DNA from: a virus
Taxonomy: Duplodnaviria > Heunggongvirae > Uroviricota > Caudoviricetes
DNA length: 18,170 bases
IMG/VR virus record: IMGVR_UViG_2802429219_000014
Reading direction: 5' to 3' (one strand)
In this document: positions 1,532 to 15,394 of the stretch, piece after piece
How positions within the stretch are numbered: the stretch's first letter is position 1
How the letters are laid out: each line of letters begins with the position of its first letter
Notes under the pieces: model-generated
Seen by the model: only the letters and a program-made list of their open reading frames with translations
Databases searched by the model: none
What the model was told of the DNA's origin: nothing
Program-made: the position numbers and the translations under genes

Positions 1532-1741
1532 TTAATTTGAATACAATGCAATTCTCGAGGACTGAAGTTTCTCGCAATTAAAATTTATCAGTTTTACTTT
1601 CTGCTCTCTGGAAACGCCTGCTTCTTTTTTACCTGAGAGCATTTTTTTGCATTCTGATTTCGTTAGTTTAGATTTTGAATATCTTGTCCAGTTAGTAGGA
1701 GTGCCACATTCCTTTTCAATAGTGGCGGTAATTTTATACAT
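1532..1741 (-). CDS. ydaC: Rac prophage small protein YdaC-like (69 aa)
   Basis: ATG at 1741 preceded by a strong SD (GGAGGTG on the coding strand); overlaps the ralR 3' end by 8 nt; position matches K-12 Rac ydaC. Confidence 0.65.
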   Translation of the reverse strand: MYKITATIEKECGTPTNWTRYSKSKLTKSECKKMLSGKKEAGVSREQKVKLINFNCEKLQSSRIALYSN

Positions 1742-11909: not shown

Positions 11910-12596
11910 ATGACCCCAATAAAAATATTTATGACTATTGCTGATTTCAAACGGCCTAAATTGGAGCTCCCAAACGGGGCAAACAAACTACTACTGCACT
12001 CTTGCTGTGCTCCATGTTCCGGTGAAGTGATGGAGGCGCTTCAGGCCTCGGGAATCGACTATACCATCTTTTTCTACAACCCGAACATTCATCCTCAGAA
12101 AGAGTATTTAATTCGTAAGGATGAGAATATTCGCTTTGCTGAACAACACGGCGTGCCATTTATTGATGCTGATTACGACACAGACAACTGGTTTGAACGT
12201 GCCAAAGGAATGGAATGGGAGCCCGAGAGGGGGATCCGTTGTACCATGTGTTTTGACATGCGTTTTGAGCGGACAGCGCTGTACGCTGCTGAAAATGGTT
12301 TCAGTGTGATCAGCAGTTCACTGGGCATTTCACGCTGGAAAAATATGCAGCAGGTTAACGACTGTGGGCGGCGAGCCGTCGCGCATTATCCGGGCATGGT
12401 GTACTGGGATTATAACTGGCGCAAGCAGGGCGGCTCGTCCCGCATGATTGAAATCAGCAAGCGCGAAAAATTCTATCAGCAGGAATATTGTGGCTGTGTG
12501 TATTCTCTGCGCGATACCAATCTACACCGCAAATCTCAGGGACGCCCTCTTATCAAAATTGGTCAACTCCACTACGGTAAAGAAGAGAAGGAGTGA
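11910..12596 (+). CDS. DUF208 / QueH-like (epoxyqueuosine reductase family) protein, 228 aa
   Basis: [11 protein letters not shown] motif near the N-terminus and CGCVYS near the C-terminus, recalled as DUF208/QueH signatures; no SD seen at either candidate ATG (11910 or 11931). Confidence 0.55.
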
Positions 12597-12628
12597 TTTT
12601 ATGGAGCACCTTTCTTATTGATTTCATA

Positions 12629-12657
12629 TTGGCGAGGTAGCGGGAGTTAAGTAAAAT
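12629..12657 (+). promoter_or_regulatory. Candidate promoter for hok mRNA (TTGGCG-17-TAAAAT)
   Basis: Hexamers read in the sequence about 175 nt upstream of the hok ATG, followed by a structured leader. Confidence 0.35.
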
Positions 12658-12833
12658 TGCTGCGGGTGCTTGAGGCTATCTGCCTCAGGCATGAACACCA
12701 AAAGGCAGATAGAGAAAAGCCCCAGTTAACATTACGCGTCCTGCAAGACGCTTAACATTAATCTGAGGCTCAATCTATGCTGAACACATGTAGGTTAGCC
12801 TCTTACGTGCCGAAAGGCAAGGAGAAGCAGGCT

Positions 12834-12989
12834 ATGAAGCAGCAAAAGGCGATGTTAATCGCCCTGATCGTCATCTGTTTAACCGTCATAGTGACGGCAC
12901 TGGTAACGAGGAAAGACCTCTGCGAGGTACGAATCCGAACCGGGCAGACGGAAGTCGCTGTCTTCACAGCTTACGAACCTGAGGAGTAA
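12834..12989 (+). CDS. hokD: Hok/Gef-family type I toxin (51 aa membrane peptide), HokD/RelF-like
   Basis: MKQQKAMLIALIVICLTVIVTALVTRKDLCEVRIRTGQTEVAVFTAYEPEE; single TM helix plus the conserved Hok C-terminal core; SD AAGGAG 9 nt before the ATG. Confidence 0.85.
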   Translation: MKQQKAMLIALIVICLTVIVTALVTRKDLCEVRIRTGQTEVAVFTAYEPEE

Positions 12990-12999
12990 GAGACCGGGC

Positions 13000-13021
13000 G
13001 AGGGAGAAATCCCTCGCCACC
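13000..13021 (+). other. Perfect 9-bp stem with GAAA loop (GGCGAGGGAGAAATCCCTCGCC) at the hok mRNA 3' end
   Basis: Read directly; sits immediately after the hok stop, where hok mRNAs carry their 3' fold-back stem-loop. Confidence 0.5.
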
Positions 13022-13455
13022 TCTGATGTATTATGCATCCTCAACGCACCCACACTTAACCAGTTTTGGCGAGTTTATTTTATCTGTAAATATTTTTATA
13101 AAAATAATGCCCACGCACAGCATAAAACAAAAAGTATTACAGATAAAAAAGGAGCGTAATGTGCAGATTTGTTGTTTTCCATATTTACTCACCTTAATAT
13201 GATTGATCTTGATAGGATTGTTATTTCAGTGGTTTTCAAATGAGATATTATGGTGATCTGGTAGATTTGCATAACATTAAAATTTAATTTGTTTAACCGC
13301 TTTTAATAATAAGCGTTGTTTTTATCCCGGCAATCTGTTGTTTGGTTTTTATTTCATTAAGGTGGGGACTTTACACTGGAGCCAGTTTATTTATACTTCA
13401 TACGTCAGCCTGAACAACTGGCATCTGCTGCACTGCGCCATCGAGAGATTGAGAA

Positions 13456-14055
13456 ATGGCGCATATACAACTGGTCAAACAAACTTCTTCTGGTTTACTT
13501 CTCCCGGCGACGCCGGAGAGTTGCGATTTTCTGCATCAAATCAAAATAGGTGAGTGGATACACGCAGACTTTAAGCGTGTGCGTAACTACGCATTCCACA
13601 AGCGTTTTTTCAAACTCCTGCAACTGGGATTCGATTACTGGACTCCGGTCGGTGGGGCGATCACACCTCGCGAACGAGAAATGGTGTTCGGCTTCGTTGA
13701 TTACCTGTGTGAATCAGTAGGCAGGGAACATACGCCAGCTCTGAGTGATGCCGCGGAACAATATCTGAATACCGTTGCGACACGCAGAACCCGGGATATG
13801 GCATTGCTCAAATCATTTGACGCTTTCCGCGAGTGGGTAACCATTCAGGCCGGATTTTACACCGAGCATTTTTATCCTGATGGTAGTCGTGGGCGTCGGG
13901 CGAAATCCATCGCGTTTGCGAATATGGACGAAACCGAGTTTCAGCAGGTTTATAAATCTGTACTGAATGTGCTGTGGAACTGGATTCTGTTCCGTAAATT
14001 TTCCTCTCCGGAACAAGTCGAAAATGTGGCCGCGCAGCTACTGGAGTTTGCGTAA
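13456..14055 (+). CDS. Conserved phage nin-region protein (199 aa), possibly DUF1367 family
   Basis: 199-aa ORF; stop overlaps the start of the next gene (TAATG); family name is a low-certainty recollection. Confidence 0.6.
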   Translation: MAHIQLVKQTSSGLLLPATPESCDFLHQIKIGEWIHADFKRVRNYAFHKRFFKLLQLGFDYWTPVGGAITPREREMVFGFVDYLCESVGREHTPALSDAAEQYLNTVATRRTRDMALLKSFDAFREWVTIQAGFYTEHFYPDGSRGRRAKSIAFANMDETEFQQVYKSVLNVLWNWILFRKFSSPEQVENVAAQLLEFA

Positions 14056-15240: not shown

Positions 15241-15316
<76 letters not shown>

Positions 15317-15319
15317 TAT

Positions 15320-15394
<75 letters not shown>

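Follow-up and report, generated by a model that had tools for sequence, protein, structure and literature searches.

The window analyzed here, an 18,170-nucleotide stretch of viral DNA, very probably carries a complete hok/mok/sok type I toxin-antitoxin (TA) module of the hokD/hokW clade, borne as cargo in the nin-like region of a Rac-type lambdoid prophage. The toxin gene, hok (positions 12834 to 12989, plus strand), encodes a 51-aa peptide that matches the Pfam family HOK_GEF (PF01848) with 82.9 bits against a cutoff of 22, all 42 profile positions being covered. Its translation equals that of the relBE-linked locus of a K-12-type genome (L009), the amino acid sequence being that of K-12 HokD, and a single accession, WP_000813254.1, is common to a K-12-type genome and to the Hok of Escherichia coli strain 190, which has a near-identical copy of the locus. 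A preliminary description of this DNA had proposed a stand-alone hok-family type I toxin locus with a 51-aa Hok, and the Pfam match, a leader match to the Rfam family RF01794, and the lack of relBE all agree with that proposal. The module is already known and very common; it has been annotated since the 933W genome and studied experimentally, and the features flagged in the preliminary description are ordinary ones. Megablast of positions 12597 to 13060 gave matches in 4727 of 5426 complete E. coli genomes, at up to 10 places per genome, and in 3924 of those genomes a match covered at least 80% of the query. These matches are annotated as hokD or Hok/Gef.

The open reading frame (ORF) list bears out the claim of an in-frame upstream start that would yield a 70-aa form. 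The ATG at 12777 lies 57 nt 5′ of the hok start and in frame with it, and the resulting mok reading frame (12777 to 12989, plus strand, 70 aa) shares the hok stop codon; its product is identical to the annotated MokW at 66 of 70 positions (94%). A mok Shine-Dalgarno (SD) motif, GAGG, is found 8 nt 5′ of this ATG (12765 to 12768, plus strand) and is invariant in 35 aligned mRNAs. Farther upstream, a consensus scan lists a putative hok/mok mRNA promoter on the plus strand (12629 to 12657; TTGGCG, a 17-nt spacer, and TAAAAT; 9 of 12 matches). Its −10 hexamer lies 6 nt ahead of the conserved 5′ end GGGTGCTT, and transcription would start at about 12664; at the equivalent site the −10 reads TAGAAT in 933W and TATAAT in K-12 hokC, compared to TAAAAT here. 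Within the toxin gene, a UACG motif at the Tyr47 codon (12972 to 12975, plus strand) is a known TadA A-to-I editing site that changes Tyr to Cys. TACGAA is invariant in the aligned hok mRNAs (35/35), R1 type included, and editing of hokD has been reported (PMC12214031).

The leader of the hok mRNA, which reaches from the 5′ end as far as the hok start codon (12664 to 12839, plus strand), matches RF01794 over model positions 1 to 157 in full, with 119.6 bits (gathering score, 59) and an E value of 3.3e-27. The match is on the hok-sense strand, with the conserved 5′ end of the mRNA, GGGUGCUUGAGG, at one end and the hok AUG at the other. Because the model fits the hok-sense leader, it marks the leader and not Sok, and the match was rejected as a candidate for the Sok antitoxin. 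The family carries the name "sok antitoxin (CssrC)," and automated annotation based on it would assign "sok" to the wrong strand.

The RNA from 12664 to 13056 (393 nt) has a predicted folding energy of −155.5 kcal/mol (z = −6.95), and none of 100 shuffles was as good. At its 5′ end is a tac element, GGGTGCTTGAGG (12664 to 12675, plus strand), which pairs with an fbi element complementary to it, CCTCAACGCACCC (13039 to 13051, plus strand; RNAduplex, −21.5 kcal/mol); in both the minimum free energy (MFE) and the centroid folds, 5′ GGGUGCUUGAGG pairs with CCUCAACGCACCC in the fbi interval. A 5′ hairpin, CTATCTGCCT/AGGCAGATAG, identified from the fold and from covariation, follows on the plus strand (12676 to 12685 and 12703 to 12712; span, 12676 to 12712). 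The inverted repeat that had been noticed at 12674 to 12709 is this hairpin: the repeat is real and its pairing covaries, and the coordinates were off by 2 to 3 nt. A ucb or anti-SD segment, AAGCCCC (12717 to 12723, plus strand), is predicted to mask the mok SD in the closed form and, once the 3′ end is processed, can pair with tac; its GCCCC pairs with GAGGC of the mok SD region in the predicted closed folds, and this helix (helix 4) covaries. The dcb element, AGCCTC (12797 to 12802, plus strand), assigned by analogy with R1 (PMC9841398), would pair with the mok SD region in the open form, and AGCCTCTTAC at this place is nearly invariant in the 35-mRNA alignment. Past the toxin gene, a 3′ stem-loop, GGCGAGGGA GAAA TCCCTCGCC, likewise identified from the fold and from covariation, occupies 12997 to 13018 on the plus strand; in R1, the 3′ stem-loop protects against 3′ exonucleases (PMC9841398). 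This structure had been described as terminal, which applies to the processed mRNA only, as the primary transcript would run on to fbi. The end of the locus, earlier placed at 13030, was set too short, with fbi falling beyond it.

Covariation was tested in 35 sequences for tac/fbi, the 5′ hairpin, the anti-SD/mok-SD hairpin, a small hairpin ahead of the hok SD, and the 3′ stem-loop. In these helices 87.9% of cells are paired, compared to 41 to 47% when the partners are slid by 1 to 3 columns, and 17 pairs show changes on both sides, compared to 9.2 ± 1.4 in shuffles. The 5′ hairpin (helix 2) is paired in 92.6% of cells, with 3 pairs changed on both sides, and the 3′ stem-loop (helix 6) in 95.4%, with 4 such pairs. 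For tac/fbi, alignment columns 4 and 429 hold U-A in 21 sequences and C-G in 12, and matched changes give GGGUGC/GCACCC in Escherichia and Kluyvera and GGGCGC/GCGCCC in Photorhabdus and Pantoea. A tac-complementary segment lies 45 to 56 nt past the hok stop in 36 of 40 loci having a recognizable tac, the genera being Escherichia, Shigella, Kluyvera, Pseudocitrobacter, Citrobacter, Photorhabdus, and Pantoea. In the distal half of tac-fbi (MAFFT columns 7 to 12), the sequences of Photorhabdus, which are without the bulged C, are offset by one column, so the nonpaired cells there are partly an alignment artifact and the per-sequence duplexes are the better evidence.

In these fold models, a refolding switch after 3′ processing is plausible. 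When tac/ucb pairing is enforced on the 3′-truncated RNA, a GAGGCU/AGCCUC (SD/dcb) stem appears, as in the published open form, and this open fold has an energy of −136.3 kcal/mol, 4.1 above the MFE of −140.4 kcal/mol (ViennaRNA). The open Tr-hok fold was not obtained as the MFE of 12664 to 13022; in that MFE structure a 5′ hairpin of the metastable type persists and the mok SD stays closed.

The sok-like antisense RNA that the preliminary description had expected was found, at the level of sequence, as a predicted Sok gene that is there opposite the mok translation-initiation region. The RNA, of about 72 nt, would run from about 12785 to 12714 on the minus strand, its ends being assigned by homology to sokW. 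The minus-strand sequence from 12785 to 12714, GUUCAGCAUAGAUUGAGCCUCAG...CUGGGGCUUUUC, is identical to the annotated sokW of 933W at 70 of 72 positions, and its 5′ end, GTTCAGCAT, is the start of K-12 sokC, with the first nine bases identical. The RNA is predicted to fold into one long hairpin, preceded by 14 unpaired nucleotides at the 5′ end and followed by a U tract (−30 kcal/mol; z = −5.57), and this 5′ tail is complementary to the mok start region. A putative Sok promoter, read from the minus strand in 12792 to 12820, combines TTGCCT (12820 to 12815), a 17-nt spacer, and TAACCT (12797 to 12792). The consensus scan for promoters did not list it because its −10 matches at just 3 of 6 positions; its assignment accordingly relies on identity to sokW and on the spacing from the 5′ ends of sokC and sokW. 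The plus strand across this promoter region (12780 to 12836) is identical to that of 933W. In Sp5, a mutation in the sokW −10 abolished antitoxin activity, sokW supplied in trans gave partial protection, and the antitoxin effect depended in part on RNase III and Hfq (PMC8621323).

The best-annotated match in the phage collection is 933W, with 93.5% identity over 12644 to 13060, and its record annotates mokW, hokW, and the antisense sokW. This hokW/mokW/sokW locus of 933W and Sp5 (VT2-Sakai, Stx2) is also prophage-borne and has an in-frame mok, with the Mok/Hok (66/70) and Sok (70/72) identities given above. It differs in the Hok C terminus (VDYESEK in HokW, TAYEPEE here), in the −35 region and everything upstream of 12644, in the sequence past fbi, which is unrelated, and in its position near one end of the phage genome rather than in a nin-like region. 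The hokC (gef)/mokC/sokC locus belongs to the same clade, with a Hok that is about 80% identical, the leader 5′ end GGGTGCTTGAGGCT, and an annotated in-frame mok. Unlike the present locus, it is chromosomal and not prophage-borne, its sokT/Sok hairpin is about 14 nt shorter, and the K-12 hokC copy is interrupted downstream by IS186. The resemblance to R1 hok mRNA that had been pointed out is confirmed by alignment, since tac, the 5′ hairpin, ucb, the mok SD, dcb, the hok SD, the 3′ stem-loop, and fbi of R1 hok/mok/sok (parB) are all alignable. R1 Hok is about 44% identical, a figure calculated for HokW; the R1 mok start lies 58 nt before hok and out of frame, whereas here it is 57 nt away and in frame, and the R1 5′ hairpin loop is longer. 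The R1 module is plasmid-borne and mediates post-segregational killing.

At the hok locus, the window shares 99.8% identity with E. coli strain 190, with one difference in 464 nt, a synonymous one. In strain 190 the same stretch is a Rac-type lambdoid prophage integrated beside ttcA, with the order intR, xisR, ralR, recT, recE, kilR, sieB, racR, ydaS/T/U/V, DUF1627, DUF977, QueH, hokD, DUF1367, DUF1364, DUF1133, two tRNAs, and lysis genes. In the window, the gene directly upstream of hok encodes QueH, an epoxyqueuosine reductase homologue (11910 to 12596; PF02677, 220.6 bits), and the gene downstream encodes a DUF1367 protein (13456 to 14055). The toxin gene is co-oriented with the ydaS-to-DUF1133 genes of the Rac-type prophage and is cargo in the nin-like part of the early-right operon.

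The decayed terminator is the sole hint of decay at this locus, all other elements being intact. After fbi, homologous loci have AACCCGCTTCGGCGGGTT and a T run; comparison with them identifies a decayed intrinsic terminator at 13058 to 13083 (plus strand), AACCAGTTTTGGCGAGTT then TATTTTAT, in which four substitutions relative to AACCCGCTTCGGCGGGTT break the stem, both here and in strain 190. The stretch reads CCAGTTTTGGCGAG in this copy versus CCCGCTTCGGCGGG. A terminator scan of 12450 to 13250 found none. The terminator is intact in relatives that share the downstream flank (APEC O78, E203449), and it is also intact in K-12 hokD, in contrast to its loss in this copy. To judge from these substitutions, this copy may not have the same mRNA 3′ end, or the same stability of its full-length RNA, as the relatives. 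Next to this stretch, an inverted repeat, ATCTGTAA ... TTACAGAT, lies in the AT-rich DNA that separates hok from DUF1367, at about 13083 to 13090 and 13136 to 13143.

Could the locus instead be a hokD of the K-12 kind, preceded by the degraded remains of a relBE operon? Its Hok has the same sequence as K-12 HokD, as such a reading would have it, but the sequence in front of the gene makes it scarcely credible. Blastn of 12597 to 12833 against relBE returned as its only match the 14 nt directly 5′ of the hok ATG, tblastn of RelE against the leader returned no match, and the leader matches the hok-leader covariance model with 119.6 bits; together these results rule out the leader as a relE or relBE remnant, a possibility that the preliminary description had raised for checking. 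The absence of relBE upstream, which it had also reported, was correct: QueH precedes hok, and tblastn of RelB and RelE against the strain 190 locus spanning the hok region found no match. The K-12-type relBE-hokD arrangement, with relB-relE upstream and with leader, mok, and sok absent, is thus not what is found here, where just the protein is identical. K-12-type genomes match only from query position 224 (window 12820) onward, and in the alignment relE-side sequence replaces all that lies upstream of AGGAGAAGCAGGCTATG in the K-12 type. Therefore, the window holds the intact form of a locus that is 5′-truncated in K-12, and the K-12 type is a derived, truncated form whose homology begins at 12820. 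K-12 hokD (relF, Qin prophage) shares with this copy the identical 51-aa protein, the hok SD, the same 3′ stem-loop and fbi, 96% nucleotide identity from 12820 on, and a place in the nin-like region of a lambdoid prophage. It is without the promoter, tac, ucb, the mok start, the Sok RNA, and most of the Sok promoter, and relB-relE sequence abuts at the equivalent of 12820. In agreement with this, K-12 hokD is reported to have lost canonical components through rearrangement (PMC12214031).

The two remaining alternatives concern what the locus does. One takes the 70-aa Mok-Hok fusion for a distinct functional toxin isoform, beyond translation coupling. Since an SD of its own precedes the in-frame ATG at 12777, translation from there must give an N-terminally extended Hok, and the in-frame layout recurs in 30 of 40 related loci; even so, we regard such an isoform as highly unlikely. 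The 40 loci are those with a tac-like 5′ end, namely, this window, 37 GTDB species-representative loci, an R1-type plasmid copy, and 933W. The start of mok is 57 nt from that of hok and in frame in 30 of them, 58 nt away and out of frame, with ORFs of 55 to 69 aa, in 7 (L013, L014, L026, L028, L031, L032, and L034), and 56 nt away, with a 19-aa mok, in 2 (L017 and L019); 1 locus has no mok ATG. R1 itself belongs with the seven Kluyvera-type loci that are out of frame, as its mutational numbering puts mok at A116 and hok at A174, 58 nt apart (PMC9841398), and the 56-nt loci are both from Escherichia. Because the spacing varies, the extension lacks conservation at the protein level. R1 requires mok translation only as far as the start of hok (PMC9841398), and a frame that varies speaks for a role of translating mok as such and not of the longer peptide. 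In this clade mok normally starts in frame with hok, and this copy is no exception; mokW/hokW of 933W and mokC/hokC of K-12 MG1655 are annotated with a common stop and with starts 57 nt apart, and these annotations, together with the 30/7/2 split of 57-, 58-, and 56-nt spacings, led us to reject in-frame mok as a novelty. In the R1-type plasmid pMTY1886 (L005), mok is in frame, at 57 nt and with 71 aa, compared to the 58 nt of the R1 reference numbering. The other alternative is that the locus is a relic in which the elements are all present and TA function has been lost, be it through the decayed terminator, weak promoters, or a general inactivity of chromosomal hok loci. It draws on the four substitutions that destroy a terminator stem kept by relatives, on a Sok −10 that matches at 3 of 6 positions and was missed by the scan, on earlier work in which chromosomal hokA, hokB, and hokC failed to mediate post-segregational killing, and on the report that K-12 hok loci are mostly inactivated (PMC12214031). 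However, both ORFs (hok and mok) and both SDs are intact, as are tac, fbi, ucb, dcb, and Sok; the only nucleotide in 464 at which strain 190 differs is a synonymous change; the functional hokW-sokW has an identical Sok promoter region; and loss of the terminator removes no element required for killing or repression. We consider a relic unlikely on this balance, if less so than a separate isoform.

How would the complete hok/mok/sok module work? The following steps are drawn from its anatomy and from the R1 and hokW literature. The weak promoter at 12629 to 12657 would give a roughly 390-nt mRNA from about 12664, in which tac would pair with fbi to produce a closed fold, the mok SD (12765 to 12768) being sequestered by ucb (12717 to 12723); in this closed, full-length state the RNA would neither be translated nor bind Sok. 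Slow 3′ trimming to the hairpin at 12997 to 13018 would remove fbi, upon which the leader would refold (tac/ucb and SD/dcb) and expose the mok translation-initiation region. Ribosomes starting from mok at 12777 would traverse the hok SD, hok (12834) would be translated, and the 51-aa Hok would enter the inner membrane, with the cell killed or lysed. The roughly 72-nt Sok, presumably made constitutively, would pair with the mok start region of the processed mRNA, blocking translation and leading to decay, and toxin would appear only once Sok synthesis stops. The folding pathway and the requirement for mok are described for R1 (PMC9841398), and hokW-sokW is a functional type I TA system (PMC8621323). 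The transcript ends, processing, and toxicity of this copy are predicted by homology with these systems; the HokD coding sequence has served as a known-toxic control (bioRxiv 10.1101/2025.08.07.668861).

By analogy with hokW-sokW in Sp5, the module likely aids lysis and phage release on induction, and prophage stabilization is possibly a second role. In Sp5, mitomycin C rapidly depletes sokW RNA and triggers RecA-dependent production of HokW and its localization to the membrane, and deletion of hokW-sokW halves phage release (PMC8621323). The locus is placed elsewhere in the 933W/Sp5 genome, so the Sp5 phenotype need not transfer. Since hok is sense-oriented in the early-right operon, no terminator was detected between QueH and hok, and its own terminator is decayed, one can also imagine that read-through from the derepressed early promoter on induction runs head-on into the Sok promoter, silencing Sok, adding hok RNA, and activating the toxin. 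This is a speculative scenario, and we think it improbable; if true, it would explain the RecA-dependent Sok loss and Hok appearance reported for hokW-sokW.

In this locus, the ancestral form of K-12 hokD, which is truncated, can be seen intact. PGAP-style annotation, which gives a "hokD" coding sequence only, hides mok, Sok, and fbi, and the coordinates given here are usable for studying how prophage induction triggers Hok.

Several observations concern the neighborhood of the module. A second type I TA system appears in the same prophage, with a full-length Rfam match to the RalA antitoxin small RNA at 1557 to 1735 (plus strand; 218.5 bits) that overlaps ralR, which is on the minus strand by the strain 190 annotation. 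Two tRNA genes (15241 to 15391; Thr and Gly in the strain 190 annotation) lie about 2.3 kb downstream of hok, and the closeness of a prophage tRNA-modification gene, QueH, to phage tRNAs is a curiosity. In E. coli PCP06235, positions 421 to 565 of the homologous locus (L059) align with window positions 12990 to 13130, and only the last part of hok is left, from AATCCCTCGCC through fbi and the terminator. This remnant adjoins a large P-loop NTPase gene on the opposite strand, an arrangement from which the slot upstream of DUF1367 appears to swap cargo genes between prophages.
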